A stretch of DNA of 64,000 nt from Cenococcum geophilum (GCA_050273025.1 CP158635.1:15686001-15750000), one strand, 5' to 3'; shown: positions 34,443 through 62,398, counted from the first letter of the stretch. Notes: generated from the sequence alone by a model not told the origin. Translations and numbers: made by a program.

Positions 34443-34565
34443 TTATCCCTTAACCCGCTAGTTCTGGCTCCTAGTTATTAATAAGACTTTAGCTAATCTA
34501 GGGCTCTTTATTGGCTAAAGTTTTATTAATAACTAAGAGCTAGAACTGGTAGGTTAAGAGATAAG
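34443..34565. mobile_element. Fold-back MITE, ~55-bp arms
   Basis: TTATCCCCTTAACCCGCTAGTTCTGGCTCCTAGTTATTAATAAGACTTT.. is mirrored by ..AAAGTTTTATTAATAACTAAGAGCTAGAACTGGTAGGTTAAGAGATAA. Confidence 0.8.
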
Positions 34566-34567
34566 TA

Positions 34568-34876: not shown

Positions 34877-34978
34877 TAATGTCTAACGGTAATAAAAGTG
34901 ATTTGGTACTAAATGTTGCCACTATAAGTAGGGAGGGTGGCCGACCCGCATAGGCTATACCCTTGTTTTCGTGGCGTA

Positions 34979-35194
34979 TGTATGGCTATAATAGAATATA
35001 CACCACCCTGGTATATCCGGTTGAAAGCGTATATTAATCTTAGTAGTTAAACGGCAGATTTTATACCTTTTAAAGTAATACGCACGGCCACTTTAATATA
35101 TTTTTACCTTTTTTAGGTATAAATCTAGGCATTTTAATTAGCGTGATTAATACGCGCTTTTAACCGGATGCGCCAAGGTGGTGTATATATATAC
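34979..35194 (+). mobile_element. Extremely 5'-truncated LINE-tail insertion containing a nested MITE
   Basis: TGTATGGCTATAATAGAATA-(TA)n-C is flanked by a perfect 14-bp TSD GTTTTCGTGGCGTA (34965-34978 and 35195-35208). Confidence 0.85.
35001..35183. mobile_element. Tc1/mariner-like MITE inserted in the (TA)n retro-tail
   Basis: TIRs CACCACCCTGGTATATCCGGTTGAAAGCG / CGCTTTTAACCGGATGCGCCAAGGTGGTG, with TA flanks. Confidence 0.85.
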
Positions 35195-35374
35195 GTTTTC
35201 GTGGCGTACACTTTAAAAGTCTTTTAAAAAGGACACGTTGTTAATAAGTAAGGCTAGTTTGGGTGCCCGTAATGGGGCACCTAACACTTAATTAAATTTA
35301 GTTTAGCGGATAATAAACCCTAGTCTAAAGCGAATAGCTGTAAAAAGCCAGTACTTGGTATACTTACGATATTG

Positions 35375-35766
35375 ATAAGTACCTATAAGTAGGAGTACCT
35401 ATAATTACGGGGAACACCTATAATAGAAGGGAGTATTTATAATAGGGAGTACTCCTAATAGTAAGGAGTACCTATAACAATAAGGAGTACCTACGACAAT
35501 GAGGAGTACCTACAACAATAAGGAGTATCTATAATGGGGAGTACTCCTAATAGTGAGGAGTACCTACGATAATGAGGAGTACTTACGACAATGAGGAGTA
35601 CCTACGACAATGAGGAGTACCTACGATAATGAGGAGTACCTATAACAATGAGGAGTACCCGCGATAAAGGGGAGTGCCTATGGTAACGGGGAGTACCTAT
35701 AATGTTAGGGAGTACCTATAATGGTGGGTACCTATAATAGTTGGGAGTAACGGGGAGTGCCTATAG
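35375..35766. repeat. 19-bp minisatellite (GAGGAGTACCTACGACAAT)n
   Basis: About 20 tandem units, degenerate at the edges. Confidence 0.92.
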
Positions 35767-37481
35767 CGATATGCCTTTGGCCGGTTTTCATTAGCTGTCT
35801 CTAAATAGTTGGCGTTTAGCTTACGTATTTTACTTACGGATTTCGTAAAAAAGCATGCTATTTAATTAGTATTTATATCGCTTTATTTTTATAAATTAGA
35901 AAATAGATACTTTAATTATAATGTAACTCTTAGCTAAGTTATAGTAATTACTAGAGATCTCTATAAGAGTCTTTACTATAGTTAATTTTAGGCCATCCTA
36001 AGGAGAAATATCCCTTGGGATGCCCTACCTAAACCTATATTATACTAGTTTAGTCTTAATAAATTACCTCGGTTATATAATCACCTTAGTTATACAATTT
36101 TCTAGCTTATTAAAATGTGCTGGCGTTTTCTTAACTGGTATAGGATAGAACTTTTCCTTTAAAGTAGTTAGTAGTCCGTATAGTAATAGAGAGAAGAGGG
36201 CCTACTAGATCTTGTAGGTTTAAAGGCTATAAAGGTTAATCTATAGACGTATAGGTATAAAATCGACCGTTGCGCTATATTAGGATATAGCAATCTACGT
36301 TATAGTCTCGCTTTAATCTATTAGCCTTTTATAAAAAGGTCTCCTTTTACTTTTAAAAATTCTCGTTTATGGCTCGCTTTGACCTTAGTAGTAACCTTTA
36401 CTTTAAACATATTACCGTAGTAGTAGATAATTAATAGCCTATTGGCGTTTTGTAGGGTAACTAGGGTGCAAGTTGGCTCTAAATTGTATATTAATAAGGT
36501 GGGAATATTAAGAATAAATATAGAATCTACCCCTTAATATTAGCCTAAGTTTTAACTGAAAACAAGATCTCGTTCTAAGAACTGGATCCAATTCTAAAAA
36601 CCGTATTTTAATTCTAAAGGCTATATCCTAATTCTGGGTCCTAGACGTACTAAGTGTGACTAAAAAGATATAGTATTGAGCTAATCGGATTATTTTTAGT
36701 TCTGGCTTAAATTGCGATCTTAATTCTGGTTTTGGGGCATAGGCCAATTAACTACTATAAAAAGGGTGTAATTTTAAAGACTGGATCTAGTTCTGGGAAC
36801 GGGATCCAGTTTTCGGAAAACAGGTCAATTAACTGCTGTAAAAAGAGGTTGCCTATATCTATATTTAGCATGTTAGGTTTAGCTCGTTTTAAGATTAGCT
36901 ACGTAATCGATTATAGGCGCGTGCACGACCAACCCAATAATCAACCTACTCTCGCAGCTGCACCTTGCCTGGCGCCTTTAGCATTACTGCATTAGAGCCT
37001 CGCTCTATTTAAGCCTTACGTATTATAAAACAAACTAAAGCTGATAATTATAATTAGTTATAGACTAATAAATGCTACCTGTAGCTTTCTAATAATACTG
37101 GAATCCTATATACGTACTATGTTTTAGCCTATACAACCAAAGACTATAAATGGTGTCCCTGTACTTTAGGTCATTGTAGCTTAATATTTAACTAAGCCCC
37201 GCGAAGCCTTAGTCTAAGCCACATTGGATTAGCTTAACTTTTCCGCGCCTAATCTACAATCCTTATGTTCTGCTTATACTCTGCTTCCTTCCTTATACTT
37301 TTCTTCCTTATTATATCCTTATTTTAAGACATGTGACGTATCCTTAACCTCCTTGCACTTATTTACTTCTCTACCATTATACCATTCGTTATATCCTAGC
37401 CTCTTTAATATCCCCTCCTCGCCTGCCTACCTGCCTGCCACGCTAGCCCTCCCAATATAGCTCTTAGCGCATTCGCCCGCA

Positions 37482-40149: not shown

Positions 40150-40850
40150 GAATTAATCCCTTCTTTTAACTAATCCCCTACTTAAATAAGTCCCCTACTT
40201 AAACAAATCCCCTACGGGAGCTATTGCCTACGTGTTTCGCCGCCCTATAGGAACTAATCCCCTACTCCTAATAATCCCCTACGGGATATGATCCCCTACT
40301 TTAACAAATTCTCTACGGGATCCACTCCCCTACGGGATCTACTCCCTTGCGGTAATAAATCCCCTGCGGTAATAAATCCCCTGCGGTAATAAATCCCCTG
40401 CGGCAATAAATCCCCTATGGTAATAAATCCCCTGCGGTAACAAATCCCCTACGGTAACGAATCCCCTGTGGGTGCTAATGCCTATGTATTCTACCGCCCT
40501 ATAGGAACTAATCCCCTGCGGCTTGTATTCCTGTACAGCTTTTGCTTTCCTATAAGAGATTGCCCTAGAGGTAGCTCCGCGAAGCCTAGAGGAACTCTGC
40601 TCCAACAGCTATAAATAAAAGGGTTAGTCTGAAATACGTTAATGGCGCCGAATTTAAAAGTGTAGGTGTGATTAAGAGCCCTAGGGTTAAAAAGCCCTGA
40701 GGGAAAAATCCCCTAGGGGAAAAAAGCCTTGGGGGAAAAATCCCCTAGGGGAATAATCCCGTAGGGGAATAAACCCCTAGGGGAATAAAGCCCTAGGGGA
40801 ATGGAACCCTAGGGGAATGGAACTGTAAGGGAATGGTACCGCAAGGGCTT
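40150..40850. repeat. 17-bp minisatellite (AAATCCCCTGCGGTAAT)n plus a related palindromic (AATCCCCTAGGGGAA)n block
   Basis: Tandem units at ~40170-40520; CCCTAGGGG units at ~40680-40830. Confidence 0.88.
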
Positions 40851-41595
40851 CTATAAATGGGCGAATCGCTAGGATTTATTTTTGTCCTCAGCTTCTCGGC
40901 TTTTAATTGGTTGGTACGCTTTGCTAAGCCTTACTGGCTTATGCTTTAATAAGTTGCCCTGTGCTGTTTTATGTAAGTTATATCTAAGGCTGCTGCCTGG
41001 ACTTGGAGAGAAAGAAAGAGGGGGATTAAGTAAGCTCTGAGAATTGAGTATTTAGTTTTAGGTATAAATGAAGGGCTATTTTTAGCTTCTAAGAGGGTCT
41101 TAATTTTGGATGTTTCGAGCGCCTAAAATTAGGTACTCTATTTTTAGGGTTTACTTAATCCCCCGAACCCTCCTCGCTCCTATCTTTAACCTTTACTTTT
41201 CCTTTTAAGTAAATGGCGTAAAAAATCCCAATCTAGCGATAAAATTTCCGTATAGCTTTCCTATCTACTAGCAAAGTTAAGAAAACGCCAAGCATCTATA
41301 TAATGCATCTCTTAGCTAAGACGAGACGCCACGCCGAATTTATGGGGCTAGTGCTAATCCCTATGGAAGACCCGCCTACGGGAGCGCCTATACCTTTAAT
41401 GTGTATCCGTTGATGAGGATATAGGTTGGGGGTTTTGGTATAGTTTAGTTGACTTAGTAACCGCGCTAAGCTAAACGCCGAGCAGCGGAGGTAGTGCATT
41501 ACCGCCATAACGCTATACTTAAGACCGTTTATTCTAACACCAACTACAGTTCCCCTATTTCCTCTATTCTTTAATCCTAGGAAGTAGACCCTTAA

Positions 41596-44500
41596 TAAAG
41601 GTGTAGTCAGAATAGGTTGGCTACCCTCCCTACTAGTAGTGGCGATGTGTAACCTAAACTAATGCTGAACTAACGCCTTTTATATACTTTAAGGACGCTT
41701 ATACGCTAATAGATAAAAGCCGGTCTATAATATATTTAAGAACCTTACTAGTATACTACTTATTGCTATACGCTAACTAGGGCATATAAATAATAGAGGA
41801 TTATGCTAACTTTATACGCGCCTTATAAACTATCTTATAGGAATAAATAGCCTTTAGCTATACTGCGTTTCTTAAACTAGAGATAAATAGTACTTAAAGC
41901 AAGTAATAGTAGTAGAATGCTCCGGGCTAAGTGCACGTTTATATCCACTGCTTACCCTTTAATATAGTACTAAAGCAGCTTTATATTGTTACTATTAATA
42001 AAATAGAAAAGCTAGGTAGTATATACTAGTTAATATATTAGGGTGCTCCTTTCCTAGTGCCTTTTCTCTTCCCTTTAGCGCCTGCCAGTTTATCTCCTCT
42101 ATTACTTTATACTTTCCCTAATACTGTAGTACCGACGCTATAATGCTAGTGCTTACTAGGGTATAAAGATTATTACCCCCTACCATCCTCTCCCTAAGTC
42201 GTCATTACTTTTATTACTATACTCTCAGCTATTTATAGCTCCCCTTCGTCTATATATACTATATAGCGTTACTTAACAATTACGCCTAGTTCCCTAGTAA
42301 TTCTTTATTAGCTAGTTTGCCCTTTAATATAGACTTAATATAGGGAAACAACTTCTAGCACTTCGTCCGGTTCTTAAATCTCCTATTAAGGAATCCTCTT
42401 GCTATTAACATAAAAGGCTTCTATCTCCATCGCTCTACCTTATTAAATGACAATAGCTAGACCCTTATGCAGAACCGCATTAACTAGTACATCTTATACA
42501 CATCGCTCTTCGTAGCTGCTGTTATTAGCAAATAGGCACGTAAATATATCTAGGTCGTCGTTAAACTCGCCATTGTTATTATTATCCTTATCCTTATCCT
42601 TATTATTACTTTTTTCTCTTAAGTAATACCTGCCAGGTAGTTGTATGTCAGGTGGTTTTTATATCCTAGTTTCCCTTAATAGCCTCCCTAGATAGATAAT
42701 CGCATCGCCTAAGCAAAGGCAGTAAGTAATATAGTTATAGTATAGTTAGTGCGTTAATGAAAATTTTTTATTACACTGACTTTGCGCCTTAGTGAGTATT
42801 AGGTAGTTTGTTAATGTTTATCCAATACTACTCTTAAAGGTAACCTGCCTTATTAGGAGAAGGTATTAGAGTAAAAGTGCCGCCAATAGGTCGATAATTG
42901 GCGCGCTTTCTTTTTGCTTTAACAAGATAGCACTTAATATAAGATAGCTCGTTCTTAATAGGTATATAGTAAAAAACCAGCTTCGTAAGTTGCGTTAGGG
43001 AGACTTCTATATAGGTCTAGCTTTTTAAATAACTAATAGCGTGCTACGATTGTTAAAGAGGTAAAAGAGGTAATTTAAGATAGTAGAGGTAACGGCTATA
43101 GCTAAGGTAGAGGGCGTAATAATAATATAGGTTTTAAGGCGATATAAAGTGTTAACAGCGGATTAAGCTAATTAGAACTTGGCCTTAAAAAGACAGATAT
43201 GAAATTCTAGCGGTGATCTCTATACTTCTATACTCTAGGTAGAAGCACTATTTAGCTCTTATTAATAGTAAGGATCTAGCTATAGCCCTTATTTTTATAA
43301 CTAAGCCAACTATATAGTTTGCCAGCTTAGCGTTTTAGTGCTACGTAAAAAGGCTGTTACCTATCTACTCCTTAAAATGTCTCTTCCCTTTAACACACAT
43401 CCTTTTAACTATTTAGCTCCTAATCTGGTACCTAGGTTTATTATAGTTTTTATACTATGCCATTCCCTATATACTAGGGATATGCGTTTAACCTCTCTAG
43501 TAATATGTTTTAAAACTCCGATGCCGTTTTACTAACGGCCAATCTATCTAATATTAACGTTACCGCGCCAAAATACAACACTATACCAATATTAGTTAAC
43601 TATATAGACCTAGCTAAATTTATCACAAGCGATGTAGAGCTTACTATTTATCGCAGATTCAACAGCAGTATAGCTTAAATTCTTCTCTCTTTATAGAGCG
43701 AGATATAGCAAAAATAAAATCTTTTTAATAATGAGACTAATAAGTCTAAAAAGAAAGAACTCCTCTTAAGTATAAAAATATAAATAAAAGATTACTATAA
43801 GTAAATGCAGTATTCTAGCACGGCTTTAAAGATAATAAGACTAATAAATGTTATAGATAAGATATTAATCCTCTAAAGCCAAGTTCTAAAACTTTAGCCG
43901 CTAGTTAAACGTGTTATATAAACTTTCTTCTATTAGCTAGACTATAAATGCCCTTCCTTACGGCATAAAACTGAAGTGTTCACTAAGTATAATAAGGCAG
44001 ATATAATAGCATTAAGACCAGCGGAGGGTAATAATCCGTTTTTACGTTTCTTAAGGGATAACTTTAGTAGGGTACTAAGGGTAAGGCTACAGTACCCATA
44101 TATAGTTAATGGCTAATACGCTAACTAAAAGGTAATATAATAGAGAAAGAATAATAACTCCTTAAAAGAACCTGAGCTAGGTAGAGAACTTTACTATATC
44201 CCAGAATCTTATATTATAAAGGTTATAACGGTAATAAGCATCGCCATTACAGCTATTATACTAGTGGCTATAATTATATTATTATACTATATAAGCTCGC
44301 CGGGAGCTAGGCTAGGCATAGTTACCGCCTATATATTAGTCTTTGTAGTTAGCATCGCTCTATTCTCCGCATAAAGAGTAGAGGTTTTTATAGCTACTAT
44401 AGCGTAAGTTAAGACTTTGATTTAAGTATAAATATCTCTTCTAAAGTAATTTACTAATTATATATCGGACTTACGCAGATTTAGAGCAATCTTAGTAGTT

Positions 44501-44790
44501 TTTATAAGTGGGGATTTAGCAAAACCAAGATAGTAATAAACATTAGTATGGGCTTGTAAACTTAGTTAGACAGGATATAATCTATTTAGTAATTAATTTA
44601 ATATGTTTTCTCCCTAAGATATATAGAAGAATTAAGGTACTCTATATAAATGTATCTAAACACTAAAGAAAATGCATTAGGCACTCTATGCAAATATATT
44701 TAAATACCTAAGAAAATATATTAGGTTCTCTATATAAATACATCCAAACACCTAAGAAAATGTATTAGGTACTCTATATAAATGAAAATA
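41596..44790 (-). repeat. Left arm of a ~3.2-kb inverted duplication (right arm ~46300-50915, with extra inserts)
   Basis: Reverse-complement identity throughout. ORF 43338-43535(+) and ORF 48832-49095(-) both contain RKKAVT..LAPNLVPRFII. A ~43-bp tandem repeat at 44638-44785 is mirrored at 46300-46440. Confidence 0.93.
41850..42645 (-). pseudogene. C-terminal half of an NB-ARC-TPR NLR (mirror copy, with an internal deletion)
   Basis: Reverse complement of 49775-50665; lacks ~110 bp equivalent to 49800-49910. Confidence 0.8.
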
Positions 44791-47724: not shown

Positions 47725-49774
47725 CTTAGGGAGAAAGCATATTAAATTAATTACTAAATAGATTACATTCTGTCCAACTAAGTTTGCAAGCCCATACTAA
47801 TGCTTACTACTATTTTAGATTTACAAAATTCCCGCTTATAAAAACTACTAAGATTGCTCCAAATCTGCGTAAGTCCGATATATAATTAGTAAATCACTTT
47901 AGGAGAGATATTTATACTTAAATTAAAGTCTTAACTTACGCTGCGGTGGCCGCGAAAACCTTTACTCTTTATATAGTTAAGAATAGAGCGATACTGACCG
48001 CAAATACCAACGTATAGGCGGTAACTATACCTAGCCTAGCTCCCGGTAAGCTTACATAGTATAATAATATAATCGCAGCCACTAGTATAATAGCTGTAAT
48101 AGCGATGCTTATTACCGTCACAACCTTTATAATATGAGATTCTGGAATATAGTAAAGTTCTCTATCTAGCTTAGTGTCTTTTTAAGAGTTGTTATTCTTT
48201 CTCTATTATATTGCCTTTCGGTTAGCGTATTAACCATTAACTATATATAGGTACTGTAGCCTTACCCTTAGTACCCTACTAAAGTTATCCCTCAAGAAAC
48301 ATAAAAACGGATTATCACCCTCCGCTAGTCTTAATGCTATTATATCTGCCTTATTATGCTTAGTGAACACTTTAGTTCTATACCGTAAGGAAGCGCATTT
48401 ACAGTCTAGCTATTAGAAGAAAGTTTATATAGCGCGTTTAACTAGCGGCTAAAATTTTAGAACTTAGCTCTGGAGGATTAATATCTCATCTATAATATTT
48501 ATTAGTCTTATTATCTTTAAAGCCGTACTAGAATGCTGCATTTACTTACAGTAATCTTTTATTAGTATCTTTATACTTAGGAGAAGTGCTTTCTTTTTAG
48601 ACTCGATAGTCTTATTATTATTATTCATATTTCCCCAATAACTTACTAGCAATGCCGCGGATTTCCCCCCTATATTATACCGATTGAGCTTATTTAAAAG
48701 ATCTTAGTTTTACTATATCTCGCTCTGTAAATAGAGAAGAATTTAAGCTATGCTGCTATTAAATCTACGATAAATAGTAAGCTCCGCGTTACTTGCGATA
48801 AATCCGGCTAGGGCTATATAGTTAACTAATATTAGTATGGTGTTATATTCCAGCGCGGTGACGTTAATATTAGATAGATTGACCGTTGGCAAAACGGTAT
48901 TGGAGTTTTAAGATATATCGCTAGAAAGGCTAAGCGCTTATCCCCGGCATATAGGGAATGGCGTAGTATAATAAACCTAGGTACTAGATTGGGAGCTAAA
49001 CGGTTAAGAGGACGCCTGTTAAAGGGAAGAGACGCTTTAAGTAGACGGGTAACAGCCTTTTTGCGTGGCACTGAAACGCCAAGCCAGTAAACCACGTAGC
49101 TGGCTTAGTTATAGAAATAAGGGCTATAGCTAGATCCTTACTATTAATTAAGAGCCAAATAGTGCTTCCACGCAGCCAGAGTATGGAAGCACAGAGATCA
49201 CCGCTAGAATTTCGTATCTATCTTTTTAAGGCCAAGTTCTAATCAATTTGATCCGCTGTTAATACTTTATATCGCCTTAAAACCTATACCATCGTTACGC
49301 CCTCCGCCTTAGCTATAGTCGTCACCTCTACTATTTTAAATCGCCTCCTTTACCTTTTTAACGATTACAGCACGCTATTAGACGTTTAAAAAACTAGATC
49401 TATATAAAAGTCTCCTTAATACAACTCGCAAAAGCTGGTTTTTTACTACATACCTATTAAAAACAAGCTATCTTATATTAAGTGCTATCGTATTAAAGTA
49501 AAAAGAAAGCGCGCCAGATTATCGACCTAATGGCGGCACTCTCACTCCAGTGCCTTCTCCTAGTAAGGCAGGTCACCTTTAAGAGTACTATTAAATAAAT
49601 ATTAATAAACTACTTAATACTCGCTAGGGTGCGAAGTTAGCGTAATAAAAAAATTTCATTAATACGCCGGCTATATTATAACTACATTACCTACTACCTT
49701 CGCTTAGGCAATACGATTATCTATTTAGGGAGGCCATTAAGGGAAACTGGGATACGAAAACTACCTGACGTATA

Positions 49775-50665
49775 ACTACCCGGCAGATATTACTTAAGCA
49801 CATTTATAAGGAGAGGCGTTTTACTGCTAACCTATTGTCACTAATAAGCTTCTTTAACCCGCAAGGGATTCTAGAGTTAGTACTGCACAGCTATTTAACT
49901 AATGTAATAGAAAGGAGTAAGGACGAGGACAAGGACAATAATAATAATAGCGAGTTTAATAACGACCTAGATACATTACGTGCCTATTTGCTGGTAATAG
50001 CAGCTTTAGAAAGCGATGCGTGCGAAATACACTAGTTAGTGCAGTTCTGCACAAGGGTCTAGCTATTGTCATTTAATAAGGTAGAGTAATAGAGATAGAA
50101 GTTTTTTATATTAATAGTAAGAGAATTCCCTAACGGGAGATTTAAGAACTAGACGAAGTGCTAGAAGCTACTTCCCCACATTAAGTCTATATTGGAGGGC
50201 GAACTAGCTAATAAAGAATTACTAGGAAACTAGGCGTAATTACTAAGTAAACGCTATATAGTATATATAGATAAAGGGGAGCTATAAACAGCTAAGAGTA
50301 TGGCAATGAAAGCGATAACAACCAGGGAGAGAATAGTAGAAAGTAATAATCTTTATACCCTAATAAGCACTAGCATTGTGGCGTCAGTGCTATAATATTA
50401 GGGAAAGCGTAAAGCGGTAGAGGAGATAAACTAGTAGGCGCTAAAGGGAAGAGAGAAGGCGCTAGGAAAGGAGCACCCCAATATACTAACCAGCGTATAC
50501 TACCTAGCTTTTCCTTTTTATTAACAGCAATAATACAAAGCTGCTTTAGTACTATATTAAAGGGCAAGTAGCGGATATAAATATACACTTAGCCTAGAGT
50601 ATCCTACTACTATTACTTGCTTTAAGCACTATTCGTCTCTAATTTAGGAAACGCAGTATAGCTAA
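49775..50665 (+). pseudogene. C-terminal half (winged-helix + TPR) of an NB-ARC-TPR NLR
   Basis: LLSL(M)SFFNPQGI, DLDTLRAYLLV, CE(M)HxLVQFCTRV(W)L, KC(Q)KLLPH, GREKALGKEHPxTLTSVYxLA, E(H)PTTIxC. No P-loop is seen upstream. Confidence 0.82.
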
Positions 50666-50928
50666 AGGCTATTTATTCCTATAAGATGCGCGCGTATAAG
50701 GTTAGTATAATACTCTATTATTTATATATCCTAGTTAGCGTATAGTAGTAAACAGTATATAGGTAAGGTACTTTAATAGGTTATAGATTAGCTTTTATCT
50801 ATTAGTATATAAGCGCCCTTAGAGTATATAGAAGGTATTAGTTTAAGGTTAGTTTAGGTTATATATTGCCACTACTAGTAGGGAGGGTAGCCGACCCACT
50901 CTGGCTATACTTTTGTTAAGATAGAGGG

Positions 50929-52206
50929 TAATATATACGTTTTTATAGTATAAATGGCAGCAGCAGTAGCATTAAACCGCTTCGCACCGTTATTATCGCC
51001 TAGGTTATCACCAGCAGCAAGCTAAAGCAACTCACTATCACGTTCTAATGCGTCCTAACGATTGTGAAGCGCGTTATAACTACTATCTAATACCTCTATA
51101 TTATCTCGAAACCTTATAAGACGCTTAGAAAACTATCTGTTAATATAGATATATATAAATCTACCTCTACAGCAGCTAGCGATATACGGCTTTTCCTACT
51201 CTATAAAATCTGGGAAAAACACTTACTTTTATTATGTCTATAATAAAGTAATAAGTATATAATAGATAGTTACTTTAGGAGAATAGAGCAACAATAACCT
51301 CCTTAAATTTTATAAGGAGAATTGCCTCCTAGTAGATACAATATTCAATATAATTAATAATATTCCAATATTATCGCCACTATTACTACTACCCTTTATA
51401 AGCCCGCTCTAAGAACGCCCATTAAAATACGCTACTACTACTCCTTCCCCTCTTACCTTAACCGATACACCTACCTAGCTATCGCCCTTCTTCCCTCGCC
51501 TAGTTTCTCCTGTCCGTCCCTTATACGCTACTATTACGTCTTGCTCTTACCTAATATTACTATTACCGCTAGCGAAGCCTCGTCAATCTTTAGCCTCTAC
51601 ACTACTAGCACTAATAACTATACTATATACTTCTAGAGCCTCCCTACTAGTACCAGTGACTACTCTATTACAGCGCCGCTTACCACATATATTATTACTT
51701 ATCCTCTCTATATATAACCTAGAACGCCAATTCTAAAATAAGTTAAGCCCCTTTTATAACTAGCACCTATATTACTCTACACGAAATCCCCCTAACACTA
51801 GTCTTATACGACTTTTGCACACTATTGTAAACCTTATTAGATCTTATAATATAAGCTATATTATTAAATATAATTATTATCCTTCTATATAGGATTAGCG
51901 AAGTATAAACTATACACGCAGTTTTCGTTTATTTAGGCTTATAGGAGATTATATTAAGATCTAGAAGAACTAAAATAGAGTAAAATAGTACTCTAACTTA
52001 CTATACTTTAACGGTATTATATTACTTTCCTTTATTTCCTATATTAATTACAGCGCTAAAGGAAGGAGAAATAGCTCTTATAGTTAGCTACTAAATTAAA
52101 GCCGGTATAATTCATATTAGTTTACTCTAGTTAGCGCTTAGTAACGGCCTATACCTAAGTTAGACGGTATATAGCTATAATAGAACATATATATATATAT
52201 ATATAC
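50929..52206 (+). mobile_element. Non-autonomous retroposon element A, copy 2
   Basis: ATG at 50954 (MAAAVALNRFAPL..), LINE-type tail and (TA)n. TSD GTTAAGATAGAGGG (50915-50928) vs GTCGAGATAGAGGG (52207-52220). Confidence 0.88.
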
Positions 52207-52220
52207 GTCGAGATAGAGGG

Positions 52221-53582
52221 CCAGGACAGGTTAATATATATATTAATACATCGGTTCATAATAGTAGGGCAGGGGTTGGCGTGTATACTACGCTATCTAA
52301 AGTAATGCTTTTGAAAACGGTAGCAAGCTCCAATTAGGCCGACGCCTACCTTATAAAGCTTCTAGCAATTAGCGAGGCAGCTAACTAGCTATAGAACCCT
52401 ACGTGCACGGCTGTCAACTAAATAGGTTTTCCAATACCTGCTTCTAGTATAAGAATATTCTCCAACTTGTAATTAGCGTTGCTATTAGTATAGAGCTAGA
52501 GGGCTAGAGTATGCTAGGAAGTAATCGCAGAGATCTTAAAGAAGCTTTAGCTAAACAATATCACGCTATACTAGATTCTAGACCACTCGGGATTTGTAGG
52601 AAATAAAAAGGCCGACAAGCTTACTAAAGCAGCGATAAGACTAGAGAGTAAGGAGCCACTACAAAGGGACGGCCTCCTATAGTACCTTGTAACGCAAGCC
52701 TTAAAAAGAGCCGAGATAATAACAGGACCGCTTCTATTAGAAAGATCTAATACTAGCAAATTTATAAGGAAGATTGACGCAGTACTCCACCTTAGAAGGG
52801 CGGTAGGATTATACTAGCAGCTAATCAGCTCCGAAGTAGCCATCCTTACGCAGCTATAGACCGGCAAGTCATTTCTAAAGAAATATCTCTATAAAATTAA
52901 TGTATTAGAGACGGCGTTATACAACTACGGGCTTATAGAATTAATACAGCACTTCCTTTTCTCCTATAGGAGGTGGGCGCAGTAGAGAATTAAACTAAGA
53001 GAGCAGTATAGAGACCGATTTGGGGATCTATTATATATATTAGGAGGCTACTTAAGCAGATGAGAAGGAGGCAGGAATATTAACGGCCCAATTAAACGCT
53101 GGAAGCCAGATATTAGCGTAGTTAAAGCTACAATCGAATTCACAAAGGAGACTAGACGTTTATACCTAAGTATATAAGACGCAGAAAGTATAGAAGCTAA
53201 CATTAATAAGTAAAGACTCTTAAGAATCCCTCCTCCAATTATCTAACCAAATATACCGCGAGCCTTATCTACACATACCTCCACTAGTGCGTTACCGATT
53301 AAGAAGCGCATAACGCTAGAATAGCCCTGCGGATATAAGGCGTCGAAAACTACTTACCTGGGCTCGCCTCTAAACTTTAACTTTCTTTTAATAGTAACGT
53401 ATTACTTTCCTTTATTTCCTTAGTTAAGTATAATATTAGGTAATAGATATATAGTTCTTATAGTTGGCTTCTAAACTAGAGCATACATATTAATAGCAGG
53501 AAGTATTTAGTTAGCGCTCTATAACGGCCTATACCCTAAATAGTATATGGCTATAATAAAATATATATATATATATACATAT
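52221..53582 (+). mobile_element. 5'-truncated Tad1-like LINE: RNase H domain + C-terminal Cys/His finger + 3' UTR/tail
   Basis: IY(TD)xSV, (E)LLAI, IFS(DSQ)SAL, (W)I(PG)HSGFVGN(E)KADKL, ILTQLRTG, (C)x(C)G..(ES)IQHFLFS(C). Stop ~53246. A third target copy GTCGAGATGGAGG follows at 53583-53595. Confidence 0.92.
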
Positions 53583-53880
53583 GTCGAGATGGAGGAAGTG
53601 GGAATAAAGTGTAGGTGAAAAGTTTTAGTAAGTGCTGACCGATCTAAGCGGCAATTAAGCCCCAGCCACGTGTAGCGGAGTTAGTGTTTTGGGTACCCCA
53701 CAATACGCCGCTTCGGAAGCGGATTAAACTCCTTGCTCCGCAGCTAAGCGGGGTTACGAAACCTTACTACCAAATGATTCGATATTATAATAATTAAGGG
53801 GGAATCTGTGCTAAAGTCTCTTATCTAATGCTAAGGTGTCTAATATGATTGTTACGAATTACGAGTGAAAACTTATGTTT

Positions 53881-55119
53881 TTATTCTGACGAAGAGCTTC
53901 TTATTAATGTATTTTTATACTCTAGGTCATTATCTACTATACGCTTCAATGCTCTCTCCTCTTGATTAATATACCTCGCTTTATTGCTAGAAGCGATATA
54001 ATCTAGAGGTATCTCTAATCTTTTCCGCTTCTTAAGTCTAGGAGCCATTAAATGCTTGCTAAGTAATCCCAGCTATCGTACCTTAGTCTCCGCCGTGGTA
54101 AGGTACTGGTAGAGTTATTGGGCAGAGATTACTAATCCTAGATCCTAATCTCCAATCTTACCCTGTATAAGTTCTTTATAAGCAAAGTCTATAAGTTTAA
54201 GTTAAAGGCCTAGATAATTAGTAGGATTTCCTTAGTTGTTGCGGAACGCCTATAAAGAATATCAGATATTAGATAAAAGAGCGTCGTTTTAAAATAGAGT
54301 ATACCTTATCTATAACTTCTTAAACTACTTTTAATTTATCTCTATTAGTAGTATAGAATATACAAGTTTACTATACCAATAACATCGCCTTGCGCGACTA
54401 CTTCCTGCCGTATTTAATGTCTAAGCCAATAATAACCTATACGCTCGCATCTAAATCTAGAAGATAGTCTTCGGCTAGCCTACCTAACCTCTTCCTCTTT
54501 TGTAAATATATAACTTTAATTATAACGCTAGGATATTATACATTATCGTGCTAGAAAGAGGCGTCCGGCTTATATTTTAACTTTATGCTAGGCGAAGCGC
54601 CGTTAACTAGAAAATAAATCTCGGTAGAACGGGCTGGCCGCACCTTCTGCGCGAAAAGGGCTGCCTTGTCTGACCCGTTGCGAATTACCTTTAGCTAACT
54701 TTAAATTGTGTCCTTAATACTATTAATAAAGAGCTTATATATACTAGTCGGCATACAGATAACAAGTCGGTGGCTTCTTACGTTATAGTTATACCTGTCC
54801 GATTTCCATCATCAGCTACGCCTGTATTATTCTTTAAGGCTATGTACCGTATCTTATCCTTAGCATACCTAAATAGCGCCTCGTCTCGCCTAAGCTGACG
54901 CTTTATATTATTATACTCTCCTTATAAAAGCTGAAATTCTGTCTATGGGTGTTCCTTAATATGTCTTCCAGCTTTAATATCTTTAAAAAGCGCAATAAGT
55001 CGGGGAGCTTAGGTAAAGGCTTTCTTGTTAATTGGCGGAGGCGTTAAAGGCGCGCTTACGAAGCTTAAAGGCGGTGTAATATGCCGATTATCTTTTATAG
55101 GAGTCTGCGACGTAGACAT
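53881..55119 (-). pseudogene. PD-(D/E)xK / Uma2-like restriction-endonuclease-fold protein relic (2 introns)
   Basis: MSTSQTP..PLTPPP..KDKIR / YDY..LVICMPTxxHELF..KYKPDASF(W)HDNxxYPSVII(E)VxY(S)QKRKRL..LAEDYLL. Intact ATG at 55119 and TAA at 53881-53883. The family assignment comes from recalled motifs. Confidence 0.65.
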
Positions 55120-58100
55120 AGCCGTATGTTATGCTATAAGTTAGGCCGCATTGCGAAGTTAAACGGTGACCGTCGCGAAAACTGGTTGGGGTTTGGCGGT
55201 TCCTTACGCTTCAAGTTAACTCAGCAACCGTGCCACTAAACAGCCGAGCAGCACACAAAAGCGTTGGTGGGGACTGTGGCGTGTGGATGCGGCAGTGCTT
55301 TACCGCTATAACGCCACGCCCAAAACACTTGGTTCCAACGCCAACTACTTTTTAAGGTTGAAAAATAGAGAATATAGAGGAAATGGGCAACTATAGACCC
55401 TTATAAGGGTGTAGCCAGAGCGGGTCGGCACCCTCCCTACTAGCGCCGGCATAACGTTAAAGTAAATTCACACAGCATCGGAACCCTCAACAAAGGGCAA
55501 GACGGTTTTCAAGTCACTTGCAAAAGGGATTAGCAGACATGTTTTTTAAGCCCTAATTCAAAAAGCTTCTTTGAAGGAAAAGGGTAGTGATTATAGGCAT
55601 AAAGCAGGTGCTAAGAAAGTACTAATAGTAGATATATGAAAATGAAAATAACTTTAACACTATAAAGAAGAAGCTGTTTCTGTATAAAGAGCCCTATAGA
55701 CCTAGTATGCCGGACAAGTTCCTATATAATAGATCCTATAGGCTTAAAGAACTAAAGAAATTCCTATAAGAGAAGCCTAATGAATTTGGTGACAAGTAGA
55801 AGTCCTATTATACTTCCTCCTAACCCTTTCCTATTATATTAATAGAGGTATATAATCCCACTTAGTAGATTGCAATAGATGGAATAAGCGCTAAAGAGTA
55901 TACACTAGATATTATTCTTTAACTCTTTAATATATAAATCTATAAGCCCACTAACCTTAAACACGACTGGTACTTACTTAGGATGTAAGTGTTTAAGCTT
56001 AGAAAGAAACTTATAGAGTTTAGGGTTATTATTATATATTAGTTGTCCTTTATTGGTAATACAGTGAATAAAATCTTCTGCCCGTATTAAGAGACTTAAG
56101 AGATTATTATAAATTATATAGAGCTCGGAAGAGGTCAAGCTAAAAGAGACGAAAGTGTAGGTTTTAGAACATAGACAGACCACTAGGCGTTTTACAGGCA
56201 TTCTATAATTTCTTATTAAATTTCTACTTTATTCTTCCGTATAGTATTACACTTATAGAGTCTTACCTATTAAATTACGCCAAATCCTAAGTTCTCTATT
56301 ATCACTCGATAATCCATTATCGTCACTCCGGCTTAGTTTATCAATATTGGTAGTATTAATTCGCCCTTCTACTAGGTCACTTTAGCGTAATCTGTTAATA
56401 GAGTGGCTAGAAGTCTGTAGCTTATTACTATCATTTAAAACTACCGTCTCTTTATTACTATCTTTATTACTATCCTCTTTTTATCCTTAATTATAAGGTG
56501 TGAAATATATAACGCTAGGGTAGTATATATAGATCGTTTCCTAAGCTCTTCCTGCAGACCTATGAGAATTATTAGCAATCTAATTTAGGTTTGTCTGAGG
56601 CATATATATAATAGGACTTATTTAACGAGCACAGAAAAGAACTATATTTTAGTAAGGCTTAGTATTTAGGGAAAAGCTAGCTTGATCTGAGGACATTTTA
56701 AGGTAAGGTGAATGCTACCTTTATAATATTTCCTCTACTGCTTAGCTAAGCTAAGACTAAGTTTAGAAAGAGAGATTAATATTACCTAAATAAGGCGAAG
56801 TATATTAGCGGCCCCTTTACCCTAAAGCTGGCGTATAATATCCGTTGGCTATAATTACTTCTTACTTGGTGTACTGTTTATGCCTAAAAGCGTAGGCTGC
56901 TAGACTAAATCTAACGGTAGCTGTTTAAATTAAAGGAGGCATTGCTAGGGGTAATTATTGGCTAAGCTGTTACTAAATATAAATACCTAACTAAAATATA
57001 TTATATTAGTGCGGAAGAACTAACGCACTAGTCTCTAGCTTTGTAAGCAGTGCTTAGCTGTTATTATTTATTAGATTATAAGTAGTCTTAATGCTCTAGC
57101 TCTTGTTAGTATTAATATAAAGAAGCTTATATAAACACCGCATACTTTAACGGCTGGAGAAGTTTATATGAATTTGTTAACTAGGATTGTGTAAGTTACT
57201 CTAAGATTGATATTTCTGCCTAAATCCATATGACGTGGGTGAAAGTAATGCCGCCTTCTAAGCGCTGTACTATGTTTTTAAGGCATGTAGTATAAGTAAG
57301 GAGTTAGGAGATAAAGCTGCGGCGTATTTAGCCACCTTTGACGTAACTGAGAAGAAGTTTAGGAATATAGTTTCTACTCTATTTGGAACCGGATAAGGGC
57401 TTCTGTATACTAGTGTTTAGGGGTAGCCCTAATAGTTGATTATTGTTTAAAGTTGATGATCCGGCCAAGCTAAGTTTTACGCTTAGAATTAAATAGGGGA
57501 TTTATTTGATATTATAAGAAGAAGCTTAGATACTGGATGCTAGTAGAGGTATTAGCCCCCTAAATACCTAGAAGCTATAGGTAGTAAAGAGATTATCCTA
57601 TAACTATTAATATGACTTAGTATTGCGGCGAAGCAGCTTGCGTAATTTAATATTTTTAGATTAGAGCTGTGCTTCTAGCGTTAGTCCTACGAGGGCATAA
57701 AGGGCGCTATTGCGTAGTTTTTTTTGCTTTATAGTACTTATAATTCCTAATTCTTTTATACTAGCCCTAAGCTCTTACCAGCTATGCTTTCTCTAGTTAA
57801 GGACCACTCGCAGCCGTCTAATTTTAGATAGGTGGGAATACTATCTTTACCTGCCCTAATATCCGGAATGGAAATTTCGTATCCTTACGACACCTAAGAG
57901 TATAAGGATGTGTATATCTTGGGAATAGACTATACGGAAAGCCATAGTAAGGCCAGCCCTATATTTTAAGTTTGGCTTATTAATCTTCTTACCTAATAAT
58001 AGGCTCGTCTGACCCCGCGAATATAGTCGCTAATGTTGAGTACGTTTTTTTAATACCTTCTAGTAAGATAGCCGGATAATTATAGATCTTTCAATTACAC

Positions 58101-59533
58101 TAATAGCTAAGTAGGTGACGATAAAGCCCACTTTATGGATGTTTCTAATAATAGCTTAGATTATAAAAGCGAAGATAAACAGCCTATTAGATTCCTAAGA
58201 AGACCAAACTAAATTTTAGAAGGCGTAATTAAAAACGGTGCACTTAAATACTGGGTAGAGTGGAAGCCTAGGCTGACGAGCATTAGAGCCACGGAGAGAA
58301 ATAAGAATTTAAGGTATTGCTCGGTTTATATTATGGATGGAGTAGTAGTTTTATGCTAGAAGCCTATTAAAGAGCCTATAACTAACCTAATGTCCTATAA
58401 ACTTTAATCTTATTATAAAAAGAATCTTAGTAAGTTTATTAAGTATATTATAAGGTTCCGAGAGCTTAGAGAGGCGCTTAAAAAGAAAGACAGAAAAACA
58501 CTTATGGCTTTAGTAGATAAGAGTGGAATATAGAAGGGACTTAGATTAACCTCACGAAACGCCATTAATAAAAGTAGTAAAAAAGAGATTAACGGCAAAT
58601 CTTTAAAAGCGAAAGAGAAGTAGAGATTACCCCTAAATATATGGCGTGTAGTGGGCTTAGGCCTAAATAATTTGGGAATAGAACTTTCTCCTATAGTACT
58701 TTAATAGTTTTTAAATAATTATTAAGTATTTCTAGTTACTGTTAAGCAATTTAATTATTTCCTATATATAATACGTTTTAGTCTTATTTATCCTACTATT
58801 TCTTAGGAATATCCTAATATAAGTGGGAATAGCTGGAGGTTCTAAGGGCTCTTAAGCAAGGCTTATAAAGCAGAATAATATATACTATATATGCTATATA
58901 ACTATAGAAAAGAGTTTATTAAAAGGCGGAACATTAGATAGTTAGACAAAGGTTAAGCTTAGGTCTACGTCCTTACTGCTAGTGAATTCCGCCTGCTAAG
59001 ACCACCTGGACTAGACGAGGTCTCTAAACTAGGTTAGGCATATTTATTCTTAAATATAAAAATCAAAAGCACTTAATAAATGTTATAGGCTTTTATAGCA
59101 GAAGCAGTTGTTCTAGTACGTTTGATAGCACTGCCTAAGATAACAACTTTCTTGCTAATGCTTTCTAAAATATTTAAGTTAGGACTAGGACTAGATAGTT
59201 AGTACAAGCTCTATTAATTTCCTTATATTAGTGCTATTTGCGTTGTCTTATCTGCTATAATGGATAAGTAAACGCACCTACTTACTTATAACGGATCTTA
59301 ACTATAGTCCCTTAAGCTAGCTGGTCTACAAAGAGCGCGCCACGCGTTTACGGATCATAAAACAAATTTTCTACTCTGAGTTCCCTTACGGAGATCCTAT
59401 CTAGTACTAGCTAGCATTTACCCCGCCATTAGAAACTCTTAGCATCTACCCCATATACTATCCTGTAGCGAAAGTACGTTTAAACACTAACCTCTCCCTT
59501 TATTCGCGTTTAAAAATTAAACGCCTCTTAAAC

Positions 59534-61246
59534 GTATGTATGTATATATGTATAATCTATTATAGCCATATACTATCTAGGGTATAGGCCGTTACTAAGC
59601 GCTAACTAGAGTAAACTAATACAAATTATACCTGCTTTAATTTAGTAGCTAACTATAAGGGCTATTTCTCCTTCCTTTTACGCTGTAATTAATATAGGAA
59701 ATAAAGAGAGAGTATATAAACCTAAGAGATAAAGAGCGTATATATATGTTGAAATTCCATCCTATAACCTACCCGTATCCGCCTATACCCTTAAGGAGCG
59801 CCTCCCTAGCCTCTATTACCGATAACTGCAATAGCTGCTTCCCTTAGTAGCAGTTTACTAAGTTATATTATTCTTAAACGGCCTAATACTAATAAGCAGG
59901 TTAAGAGGGCGGCGGCAATTACGTATTAAGGCGAGATCTAAAACAAAATTTAATAGAGAATAAGAATAGGGACCCGGTTACCTATGCTACTAAATTATAA
60001 GAATCCTGTCCTTCTCTTTCCTATATACTGGGCATTTACGGTATAAGGCTTAGTGTGGGCCTTAGCAGTTTACGTAGCGCAGGTTTACTGTCTTATACTA
60101 GAGATAACCTTCCTAGCCACACATATCGTATATATTGGGTCATATATAGTCTCTAGCTCTATATCTAAACCTTTTACATTTAAAACATGCCACTAGAGTG
60201 CGTCGCTCTTTAAATAGCGATACTACAATCGTACCTCCACTAAACGACACACTATCTATCCTAAGAAGCTTCTCCGTGTCCTCCTTTGTTGCTACCTTAA
60301 TAACCACTAACACATGCTAGCTACTAGGCCTTAGTCTTCCGAGCCATCTCATTATATATACCTCCACCCCATTCTCCTCCCTAAACCGCTCTATAGCTAA
60401 TTTACTTACTTTCCCACTATTAATATTTATTGCTAGAGCCACTTTAACCTAGTCCGCTTTAACTGTATACTACTTAGGTCCGATAAGCCTCGCCCTAGGG
60501 ATATACGGTTTAAGCTACTATATAGTTATCTACCGGAACGCGGCCTCTTTATCCTTTTCCACTAAGAATTTAATAACGCTTATATTATCATTCGCTCGCT
60601 ATACGCGGAAGTCCTTAACTATAGCCCCCGTAAGTCTCTTAACATCACTTATACCCTACATAATAGTTTATTTTACCACCTCTATATTCACTATCTTCTC
60701 TATCACTCCCTATCCCGCTTAGCTAATATTAATCACTAGCTAACCGTTGGGCTCCTTATAAGGGTCCCCAGCGCTTATTATTCGCAAAAGTTATCCCTAA
60801 TCCTGCTACGCCTCTACTAGCCGCTACTGACGCCCATAATTATATTAATGGAGGCGATACTAAAAAATTATTAAACTGCGTTCGGAGAGAACGGATCTCC
60901 TCCTAAAGTTCGGCGTATTGGCTCTTAAGGCTCTGCTGTTCTAAGTAGATCTCTACAAGGTCGTCTTAGACGCTTTTGATAATGCTGTTCTAGTTCATAA
61001 TAACGCTACTCTGCTATGTTATAATCTCTTTCAGATTTGTGATAAGCCTCGCGATTTCCTCTAAGTTAGTGCTTCTTCCCTCGCGTTTAGGTGAGACGGA
61101 GACGCTTGCGGTAGGGAATGGGGGTAGTCCATTCTGCGTTGATCGTGGCGCGATTGTTTGTGTTTTTAGCGACTGCTAGGCCTCTAGCGCCTTCGCGCTC
61201 GGTTTCCTTGTACGTCCTCTTATTGGAGCTGCTGGCGTGGCCAGAG
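59534..61246 (-). mobile_element. Gag/ORF1-only non-autonomous retroelement with LINE-type 3' tail
   Basis: RIP-broken ORF ~61223-59978 (RGRTRKPSAKALEA, coiled coil, SWASVAA, three Cys/His knuckles CFKCKRF(GH)xxRD(C) .. CGxEG(H) .. NCxGPH). No EN/RT. Tail ends CATACATAC. Perfect 14-bp TSD AACGCCTCTTAAAC (59520-59533, 61247-61260). Confidence 0.92.
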
Positions 61247-62398
61247 AACGCCTCTTAAACAAGGGTGTGGCCAGAGCGGGTCGGCACCCTCCCTGCTAGC
61301 GCCTGTAGATGGCAGCATCGTGACGATGGTTCTGGAAGAGTCCTCTACATTCTTTCCTGCTTACATAAGCAGATTCCCTTTATTTCCATCTTACCTCAGC
61401 GAGCTCAGACGTGAATTTAATTGGAGCGGATGTTCCTTCGGCCCGTCAGCAAGCTAACTAACATCCACCAAAATCACGTCTAAGGCACTTTGGCGAGATT
61501 TGTTAAAATTATAACCAAAATCTTAATTTTGGCGATTTTATAAGGGGATTTCCTCCACGATATAATAAAATAAAGTCTTCAGAAGTTCATAGATGAATTT
61601 TAGGAGGCTACTTTACATATTAAATATTTTAGAATTATATTGTTCCCTTCCAAATCTAAGATTAATTTCGTTAAAGTTGAAATTCCCGTTGTTAAAACTA
61701 TGAGCTTCTTTTGTATAGGCCTATATGGGCCTATATAAAGGTATAAAAAGCCTAAAATCTTATAATTTATAGAGCTAGATCTCCTGAGTAATTTAATATA
61801 ATTTTTACCTTAAAAGACGCTGTAGGGATGTTGATCAATTTTGTTGGGGTTTATGAGTTTTCCTTACTAAAAAAGCTCGTGCTTCTATACAAATCTCGCC
61901 AAAGCGCCTCAGACTAAGAAATCGATCAAATATCCGAAGGAGATTAGCGCGCCAGCGTAATCGATTTCTTAGTCTAAGCTTCTGAGGTAAGTTTCCATCT
62001 TGGTCGACATCCATAAGCAATTGCTTATGACTTATAGGTATAGGCCTATATAAAGGCCTATATTTGTTGTAGATAGATTCTATATATAGATTCATTCATT
62101 CCAATATTATCTAGTTTATTACATCGAAATGCGTTCTAGTAATATGGCAAACAGGAGCTTGCTATACCCTAACTTTTAGCGTGAAAAAGGCATTGCCTTA
62201 TTCCTGTCCTTCGTTCTTCACTAGTAAATAAGATCTATATGCTATATGCGATAAAGACCGTTCCAAGCTGGTAATCTCAAGCCGATCTATATTACTCAAA
62301 TGCCTAGGTCTTTAGCGCCCTTTATTGTCGGTGTGTCTTAAAGACAGTATATACTGCTTAGGAGGCACGCTTTATATAGCGTATTCCGCTAGATATAG

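Follow-up and report, generated by a model that had tools for sequence, protein, structure and literature searches.

Evidence for one LINE family with truncated, ORF2-deleted and tail-borrowing members beside a common target motif in Cenococcum geophilum

Introduction

Several long interspersed nuclear elements (LINEs) insert at specific targets, examples being R2 in ribosomal DNA and Tx1L inside a DNA transposon, and the recognition of short interspersed nuclear elements (SINEs) by a LINE with the same 3′ end has been termed "stringent". LINEs also give rise to unusual derivatives. The mammalian element HAL1 encodes only the protein of the first open reading frame (ORF), ORF1p, and arose several times (excerpt of PMC5753468). 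The chimeric elements MINE and WEIRD-MGL of Magnaporthe, one of which has 14-bp direct repeats, have been explained by template switches in the course of LINE reverse transcription (excerpt of PMC2104539). In the fungus Cenococcum geophilum Tad1 is the dominant LINE superfamily with 8,295 copies, and repeat-induced point mutation (RIP) is widespread (excerpt of PMC12910237). Here, a stretch of 64,000 nucleotides of this species (GCA_050273025.1 CP158635.1:15686001-15750000), called the window in the following, was analysed with respect to four insertions that have different bodies and a common 3′ tail, i.e., two copies of an element A (A1 and A2), a fragment of a LINE polymerase region (pol fragment), and an element with an ORF1-like body (gag-only element).

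A preliminary description of the window had proposed two explanations for the shared tail, either protein-coding non-autonomous parasites of one LINE, or a segmented system. The analysis favours one LINE family, which would comprise a bicistronic full-length form, truncated pol copies, an ORF2-deleted gag-only form and the tail-borrowing element A; a probability of about 0.8 was assigned to this reading.

Results

A common 3′ tail on different bodies

The presence of a common 3′ tail on different bodies was confirmed by an alignment of the 3′ ends and by self-BLAST. All four elements end with a tail of about 150–190 nt followed by a (TA/TACA)n run, and their previously assigned borders were correct to the base: A1 is located at 26340–27625, A2 at 50929–52206 and the pol fragment at 52221–53582, all on the plus strand, and the gag-only element at 59534–61246 on the minus strand. 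In the self-BLAST the tail regions of A1 (27418–27617) and A2 (51990–52219) matched the pol tail (53374–53595) at 72% and the gag-only tail (59532–59719, minus strand) at 86–89%. Over 152–156 aligned tail nucleotides, A1 and A2 differed by no transversion, A and the gag-only element by two, and either of them and the pol fragment by 22, and thus the impression that the A and gag-only tails resemble each other more than they resemble that of the pol fragment held up. The tails represent two subtypes, one of which is carried by A and the gag-only element and the other by the pol fragment. Because both tails of the first subtype differ from the pol tail by 22 transversions, we infer that A and the gag-only element may have been driven by a LINE subfamily other than the source of the pol fragment. 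Upstream of the tail, A and the gag-only element aligned with a score of 82, which was not significant in comparison to shuffled sequences (mean 66, standard deviation 6.5, maximum 84).

The window is AT-rich (GC content 31–42%), and its whole length has RIP indices of 1.35–1.87 (TA/AT) and 0.41–0.83 ((CA+TG)/(AC+GT)). As stops interrupt all reading frames of the region, the analysis relied on un-mutated relatives, and window frames were translated through stops with an X at each stop. With such X-masked translations, Pfam yielded only RNase_H for the pol fragment (E 0.14) and no family in the six frames of the gag-only element and A. Relatives were obtained by searching metagenome contigs with the protein P0001 (1299 aa), which led to ten loci (L001–L010), most of them free of RIP mutation; L006 and L009 are identical in sequence and were counted as one locus. 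A scan of the metagenome contigs with the tail motif gave no match. In the tail alignment each window tail differed from those of L001 and L008 by 17–24 transversions. Because the un-mutated elements L001 and L008 end in (CA)n, with six to eight units, the (TA)n/(TACA)n microsatellites of the window are the RIP products of (CA)n. An RNAalifold analysis of six tails retained a terminal hairpin directly before the repeat, and a hairpin at this position is thus a plausible prediction.

Relatives with two overlapping ORFs

The translation of the pol fragment matched P0001 over 85% of the query with 55% identity (E 7e-108). P0001 contains the Pfam domains Exo_endo_phos_2 (residues 107–241, E 8e-19), RVT_1 (517–771, E 6.5e-25) and RNase_H (961–1096, E 5.6e-9). 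The preliminary description had left to be checked whether a full-length pol copy carries an ORF1 that is homologous to the gag-only ORF, and this turned out to be the case: in L002 an ORF1 of 445 aa (296–1633) precedes ORF2 and overlaps its ATG at 1626. In L001 ORF1 ends at 982 and ORF2 extends from 975 to 4874, and thus they overlap in the same way; bicistronic relatives were found at L001–L004. The ORF1 product of L002 comprises a coiled-coil region as well as a CCHC knuckle, for which the zf-CCHC score was just below the cut-off (20.4 versus 20.8 bits, E 5.4e-4), and additional Cys/His spacings were noticed by eye. With HMMER, 133 relatives were found for the central and C-terminal part of the window gag frame (251 residues, X-masked).

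Two window elements have bodies that correspond to opposite ends of a bicistronic relative. At the nucleotide level positions 11–1247 of the gag-only element matched L002 346–1611, and positions 1–949 of the pol fragment matched L002 4504–5452, both at 72%. A tblastn search of the whole window with L002 ORF1 and L001 ORF2 retrieved three pieces, i.e., ORF1 residues 16–439, ORF2 residues 956–1288, and a faint ORF2 match at 41343–41420. The ORF1 matches (residues 16–177 and 176–439, window 61241–59999) had an E value of 5e-134, and the ORF2 match at 52212–53210 had 55% identity and an E value of 5e-101. The pol fragment (52221–53582) consists of this last part of ORF2 (about residues 956–1288), the 3′ untranslated region (UTR), the tail and the microsatellite. 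It contains the RNase H and the C-terminal region, the endonuclease and the reverse transcriptase (RT) are absent, and its frame has 16 stops in 333 codons. The truncation points are variable, namely about ORF2 residue 956 in the window, about 916 in L004, L006/L009 and L010, and a site corresponding to window position 53113 in a further contig.

The full-length relatives have RT and endonuclease in ORF2, as is typical for LINEs without long terminal repeats, and target duplications, variable 5′ truncation and a defined 3′ end with a simple repeat were also observed. Because the relatives are bicistronic and the gag and pol bodies correspond to the beginning and the end of such a relative, the family is an ordinary two-ORF LINE, with an ORF1 that encodes a predicted coiled coil and CCHC knuckle and an ORF2 with an apurinic/apyrimidinic endonuclease (APE), RT and RNase H, which has been inactivated by RIP in this genome. 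The pol fragment is a 5′-truncated copy of it, and the gag-only body is the ORF1 of the same LINE family. RNase H follows the RT and ORF1 has a CCHC motif, as in the Tad1 clade; the putative assignment to Tad1 rests on this domain architecture and on the excerpt of PMC12910237. As a side observation, the pol fragment also matched P0003 (E 3e-47), a protein of 1636 aa from Monosporascus ibericus with ankyrin, nucleoside-phosphorylase and NLR-type domains, and this gene model probably extends into a fragment of a LINE.

The gag-only element is an ORF2-deleted form

The gag-only element (minus strand) is composed of three parts. The first (61246–59962) contains ORF1 from about codon 14–16 to its stop and the first eight codons of ORF2 (59985–59962), the second (59961–59720) is a stretch of about 240 nt from the deletion scar to the tail, and the third (59719–59534) consists of the shared tail of the A-type subfamily and the microsatellite. 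The homology to L001–L004 passes the ORF1 stop and ends at ORF2 codon 8; beyond this scar the remainder was no more similar to the N-terminus of ORF2 than shuffled sequences. From ORF2 codon 8 to the 3′ end only 428 nt remain, i.e., the 240 nt and the tail. The last codons and the stop of ORF2 may lie in the 3′ part of the 240 nt. A pairwise hint that this segment is the conserved 3′ UTR block of the LINE was not upheld by a multiple alignment, and this assignment was dropped. At the other side the element starts about 40 nt inside ORF1, without start codon and 5′ UTR, and ORF1 has one frameshift near 60785 and 23 stops in 417 codons. Thus, ORF1 residues 16–439 were kept and ORF2 is gone between ORF1 and the 3′ UTR, as in a HAL1-like element. 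Because the homology stops at ORF2 codon 8 and the element starts inside ORF1, it is a 5′-truncated copy of a LINE derivative that has lost ORF2 and retained ORF1.

At least four contigs from three runs bridge position 59962 by 40–174 nt with a divergence of 12–16% (X1 record 7, X13 records 14 and 15, and X5 record 21; 80% likeness, none of them reaching the tail). Because diverged contigs in several runs bridge the same junction, the deletion is not private to this locus, and the deleted form seems to have multiplied. It had been considered before that the gag-only element could be a unique internal deletion of a two-ORF LINE with an identical tail; an internal deletion it is, but it is not unique, and its tail is not identical to that of the pol fragment.

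These results bear on the proposal of a segmented retroelement, with gag, pol and the accessory gene residing on separate RNAs that have a common packaging or priming tail and move to the same target. The occurrence of one tail and one target motif with three bodies fits such a system, as does the fact that the ORF of element A encodes a real conserved protein (see below). However, in the relatives ORF1 and ORF2 are parts of one element and one RNA and overlap at stop and start, the pol piece lacks endonuclease and RT and begins in the middle of an ORF at residue ~956, the gag-only element retains eight ORF2 codons as a scar and has no start codon of its own, and the pol tail is of another subtype (22 versus 2 transversions). 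A segmented system was therefore regarded as extremely improbable. The other proposal, coding non-autonomous parasites of one LINE, was upheld, as the gag-only element is a derivative with deleted ORF2 and the ORF of element A has intact homologues.

Insertion next to the motif T

A motif of about 50 nt, designated T, is present in seven copies in the window, the ends of which are at 26326, 27626, 34964, 41591, 50914, 55405 and 61261. It is also conserved in the loci L002–L004, L006, L009 and L010. The target duplications of all four elements are 13–14 nt long, and each time the duplication starts with the base that follows one particular end of T, from which the element is directed away. A copy of T at 26272–26326 (plus strand, reverse-complement orientation) lies directly upstream of A1, which has a 13-nt duplication at 26327–26339 and 27626–27638 with only G-to-A differences. 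A further T copy at 27626–27683 (minus strand) faces the opposite way; the first 13 nt of this copy are the right duplication of A1, and the left duplication equals them apart from G/A transitions. The T copies at 26326 and 27626 form a palindromic junction, and A1 was inserted into this junction. The gag-only element is flanked by a duplication that is identical at 14 of 14 positions (59520–59533 on its 3′ side, 61247–61260 on its 5′ side), and is adjoined by T at 61261–61310 (minus strand).

T at 50863–50914 (plus strand) is followed by A2 and the pol fragment, which form a head-to-tail tandem with three copies of a 14-mer (50915–50928, 52207–52220 and 53583–53596) that match at 12 of 14 positions and differ only by transitions. 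The middle copy is common to both elements, which were thus inserted in tandem at a single site and not at two. The earlier statement that each element has its own duplication therefore applies to A1 and the gag-only element, but not to A2 and the pol fragment.

The fifth tail-bearing piece is a 24-nt remnant of the extreme tail end (34980–35003), which is separated by a 15-nt target segment (34965–34979) from the T copy that ends at 34964 (whole feature 34915–35003, plus strand), and no clean duplication follows it. Taken together, all five tail-bearing pieces of the window lie at T, and four of the seven T ends are occupied. The T copies at 41591–41650 and 55405–55447 (both minus strand) have no abutting tail-bearing insertion and no insertion, respectively. 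About 170 nt from the former, in the expected orientation, lies the weak ORF2-like remnant at 41343–41420 (residues 640–665, E 0.006).

Among the relatives T directly precedes the full-length elements L002 and L003 and the truncated elements L004 and L006/L009, i.e., four of the five visible 5′ junctions; the first fragment of L010 is not preceded by T. Unoccupied T copies are present in L010 and L009, and the contig mentioned above joins T to pol position 53113 via 18 nt. In addition, the N-terminal extension of P0139, a C. geophilum model of the A protein, is translated T (11 of 11 residues in comparison to L002 113–145). Because this extension translates T exactly, an A copy follows T in the respective C. 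geophilum assembly as well. Because five of five window insertions and four of five junctions of the relatives follow T, the integration appears to be site-specific, directly after T. The 14 nt past T show only loose conservation, so that T itself is probably what is recognised.

As a side observation, all three truncated relatives L004, L006/L009 and L010 start near ORF2 residue 916–919, and by eye the element sequence at these starts resembles the 14-mer after T, which suggests a microhomology-guided 5′ joining at these truncations.

The nature of T was also considered. Rfam gave no matches in the window at the gathering threshold and none in seven loci at E ≤ 0.1, and ARAGORN found no tRNA; because both were empty, T is not a recognisable small-RNA gene. 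The idea that pairs of T are the terminal inverted repeats of a DNA transposon was dropped, since such pairs enclose host-like genes. One of these is an NLR-like frame at 27617–34975 that was noticed by eye (see below). Between two outward-pointing T copies of L009 (2181–6570) lies a RIP-affected tyrosinase gene (Tyrosinase, E 1e-14; Tyrosinase_C, E 4e-16), and the flanks downstream of T are alike only within pairs. The palindrome at 26326/27626 suggests the opposite polarity, in which T may belong to a short element with a palindromic or inverted-repeat structure whose inner edge carries the LINE site, and this reading fits better than a transposon end.

Element A is a protein-coding unit with a LINE tail

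The two copies of element A differ by 129 transitions, no transversion and one gap. Because all differences are transitions, A1 and A2 had almost the same sequence over 1.28 kb, tail included, before they were mutated by RIP. A1 consists of a leader of about 24 nt, an ORF with a BIR domain (26368–27309) and a 3′ UTR of about 315 nt including LINE tail and microsatellite; A2 has the same organisation, with the ORF at 50954–51898 and the tail from about 51990. In general, the 3′ UTR has about 310 nt, the last 200 nt or so being the LINE tail. The start codon of A1 has changed from ATG to ATA, and there are 16 stops in 314 codons in A1 and 14 stops in 315 codons in A2. A de-RIPed consensus of the two copies contained at least 21 stops in every frame, and a ratio of nonsynonymous to synonymous substitutions (dN/dS) is not obtainable from this pair, as all differences are RIP-type transitions.

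Intact homologues were found in other sequences. The A2 frame from 50954 matched P0137 (326 aa) with 60% identity and 87% coverage (E 6e-97) and P0138, an annotated protein of C. geophilum 1.58, with E 3e-54, this species being the closest named source; conversely, residues 7–326 of P0137 were mapped by tblastn to A1 26386–27306 (E 5e-96). The cluster of P0137 includes intact members of 326–327 aa on contigs of 1.1–1.35 kb, which is about the length of A. No A-like ORF was present in L001–L010, A had no similarity to ORF1 or ORF2 of the LINE, and the A 5′ region was no more similar to the LINE 5′ UTRs than shuffled sequences. A is therefore a protein-coding retroposon of about 1.28 kb, in which an ORF with a putative BIR domain is fused to a LINE 3′ end.

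The similarity of A1 and A2 ends at the element borders plus T (26285–27616 and 50873–52205), their duplications differ, and their flanks differ beyond the T motif of about 55 nt; A was thus inserted at least twice independently, with its own duplication each time. This is relevant for the possibility that A and the gag-only element are one-off accidents of reverse transcription that were multiplied by segmental duplication before RIP set in. LINEs commonly give rise to chimeric and deleted by-products (excerpt of PMC2104539), the window has just two copies of A and one gag-only element, and duplicated blocks are abundant in the region. The different duplications and flanks, the end of similarity at element borders plus T, and the diverged contigs with the gag-only junction in several runs do not agree with this possibility, and it was considered to be unlikely.

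Still less can be said for A as an ordinary, immobile host gene for a BIR-domain protein with a LINE fragment in its 3′ UTR by chance. The family is conserved at 35–50% identity in other Dothideomycetes, where its members are annotated as ordinary hypothetical genes, and the conservation of motifs suggests a function. Yet the unit stops exactly at the LINE microsatellite and is bordered by duplications at two loci, both copies lie at the specific target of the LINE, and they were virtually identical before RIP over their whole length including the tail. This explanation was judged to be very unlikely, and insertion of A as a passenger of the LINE family is preferred.

As a side observation, both A copies open with a 10-nt (TA)n-like leader and 14 nt (26340–26363 and 50929–50952), and these 14 nt equal, apart from transitions, the 14-mer after T at 34965. 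It is suggestive of a master A RNA that began within a tandem array. Taken alone, the purine/pyrimidine pattern of the 14-mer occurs 11 times in the window, so that the match is only suggestive.

The product of element A

A search with P0137 retrieved 13 proteins at E ≤ 1e-3 with 35–50% identity over 85–98% of the length. Among them are annotated proteins from Periconia macrospinosa and Paraphaeosphaeria sporulosa, and the family reaches into the Pleosporales (P0155–P0165). The alignment of 14 sequences revealed a conserved N-terminus, a Cys/Cys/His/Cys block, a variable linker rich in Pro and Ser, and two highly conserved C-terminal motifs. This pattern would be expected under constraint and is not a dN/dS test. 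Of the putative zinc ligands, C92, C95 and H119 are shared by 90% or more of the 14 sequences and C122 by all of them; P0137 has a Tyr at position 119. The spacing of the ligands departs from the canonical BIR spacing.

From the sequence, the evidence for a BIR domain is weak but consistent. PF00653 was matched by three of four proteins with E 0.0022–0.0024 and 18.8–18.9 bits, below the cut-off of 22.9, over positions 1–46 of the 70 positions of the profile, two relatives have a precomputed PF00653 match, and 12 of 14 weak matches to PDB sequences were BIR proteins. The evidence from the predicted structure is clear. An AlphaFold2 model built from the 14-sequence alignment was confident only at residues ~51–130 (predicted local distance difference test 64–82), and the modelled BIR fold spans residues ~42–135. 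In a comparison with 48,161 PDB chains ranks 1–14 were all BIR domains (Z 8.0–5.2), with 7qgj_B at the top (Z 8.0, root mean square deviation 2.4, 77 aligned residues), followed by a BIR-like zinc finger (Z 5.1) and then by a drop to Z 2.5. The matches listed by Foldseek were all BIR or survivin (best E 3.4e-3). A look-up in the ESM Atlas yielded only scores below 0.9 and template modelling scores below 0.4.

It is tempting to speculate that A is a stable coding non-autonomous retroposon lineage, in which the BIR gene is a passenger of the LINE tail and its product serves the element. This is rather unlikely. If it were true, the product could be, e.g., an alternative partner that binds nucleic acid or chromatin, or a modulator of cell-death or NLR pathways of the host. 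Together with the ORF1-only form, the LINE would then be the hub of coding parasites on one landing pad of about 50 nt.

Other features of the window

Several further features were noted. One frame at 27617–34975 has, by eye, the characteristics of a RIP-broken NLR-like gene with a patatin-like motif, a P-loop and TPR-like repeats of 42 aa, which correspond to a repeat period of 126 bp; tandem repeats of 126 bp are located at 24073–25632 and 32711–33514. Two inverted arms of about 3 kb (41591–44618 and 47725–50920) are 84–90% identical, lie 3.1 kb apart and each end in an outward T. They could be two head-to-head copies of one element, or one element with very long inverted repeats. A repeat of about 3.5 kb (55402–58941) opens at T and has a summed contig depth, not to be taken as a copy number, of 33–58 times that of single-copy pieces; a six-frame Pfam search of 55405–58941 yielded no family. 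Minisatellite arrays are present at 10940–11732 (17 bp), 35349–35768 (19 bp) and 40647–40838 (16 bp).

Discussion

The results can be combined in the following model. The RT would recognise its own 3′ tail of about 190 nt, consisting of the terminal hairpin and (CA)n, in cis or in trans, so that any RNA ending in that tail could be copied by target-primed reverse transcription. The endonuclease would nick right after T, which would lead to duplications of 13–14 nt, a fixed orientation and tandem arrays. Element A most likely originated as a chimera of a transcript of a cellular or foreign BIR gene and the LINE 3′ end, by template switching or read-through, and would then have spread as a non-autonomous passenger. 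Both A and the gag-only element would depend on a LINE subfamily different from that of the pol fragment.

Several observations weigh against the proposed LINE family or limit it. Among the relatives examined, no full-length LINE with a tail of the A/gag type was seen. Covariation in the tail hairpin is scant, with double changes in 4 of 28 pairs. The linkage of the BIR ORF to the tail was read only in the A copies of this genome. The 240 nt of the gag-only element (59720–59961) had no confident placement, as the multiple alignment to the 3′ UTR block of L001, L008 and the pol fragment was poor, and the window copy, lacking the ORF1 start, does not demonstrate a functional half-LINE. The specificity for T may not be absolute, since the 3′ flanks of L001 and L008 are unlike the typical 14-mer, and the contigs of these two loci do not extend to the 5′ junctions. 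Finally, summed contig depths, which in run X1 were about 100 for single-copy pieces, 520–670 for the A body, 2,500–12,300 for ORF1 and 18,800–28,700 for the pol fragment, are not equivalent to copy numbers, and no meaning was given to bins with low cover. A deep 3′ end and a shallower 5′ region are the outcome given by 5′ truncation. Contigs with a listed alternative base at single positions numbered 48 for pol, 29 for ORF1 and 4 for A.

With the model, the multipartite idea gives way to a concrete and testable account, namely that of a single LINE family with its dependants in a fungal genome that is very rich in repeats. The gag-only element would be a fungal counterpart of the mammalian HAL1. 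A complete foreign ORF with a BIR domain on a LINE tail bears on the spread of genes by LINEs and on the origin of non-autonomous coding elements. The strict target choice of an APE-type LINE would aid the annotation of transposable elements in RIP-mutated AT-rich regions, where such pieces would otherwise be "unclassified".

The family can be compared with several known systems. Like the Tad1-type LINEs of fungi it has an ORF2 with APE, RT and RNase H, an ORF1 with coiled coil and CCHC, 5′ truncation and short duplications. It differs in that it ends in (CA)n after a conserved tail of about 190 nt and inserts beside one motif of about 50 nt, features that the excerpt of PMC12910237 does not mention for Tad1. 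The gag-only form resembles HAL1 in being non-autonomous and multi-copy, with ORF1 kept and ORF2 lost (excerpt of PMC5753468), but it belongs to another clade and kingdom, a scar of eight ORF2 codons is visible, and the window copy is 5′-truncated and broken by RIP.

The sharing of the tail is reminiscent of SINE/LINE pairs, in which the passenger bears the 3′ end of its partner LINE and is thought to be recognised through it (excerpts of PMC3747384 and PMC5786205). In contrast to SINEs, A and the gag-only element are 1.3–1.7 kb long, encode proteins and have no head derived from a small RNA. The closest precedent found for A would, by analogy, be WEIRD-MGL; in MINE and WEIRD-MGL, too, an unrelated 5′ part is joined to a 3′ part from a LINE end. 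According to the excerpt of PMC2104539 their 5′ partner is a non-coding RNA, whereas A has a complete conserved ORF for a putative BIR-domain protein and was re-mobilised as a unit. Among the papers listed by a literature search on BIR domains in fungal non-autonomous retrotransposons, none contained the phrase "BIR domain".

With the target-specific LINEs R2, Tx1L and Utopia, which resides in U2 small nuclear RNA genes, the family has in common a fixed position and orientation at a repeated target and the formation of tandem arrays. Most lineages of this kind have a restriction-like endonuclease (excerpt of PMC4640811), whereas that of the present family is predicted to be of the APE type, and the target is a motif of about 50 nt without an Rfam match and not a known RNA gene as for R2 and Utopia. 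Taken together, a LINE family with truncated copies that was killed by RIP is the ordinary part of the findings. Less ordinary are an amplified ORF1-only form of a fungal LINE, a complete BIR gene that spreads on a LINE tail, and the strict integration beside a 50-nt motif.

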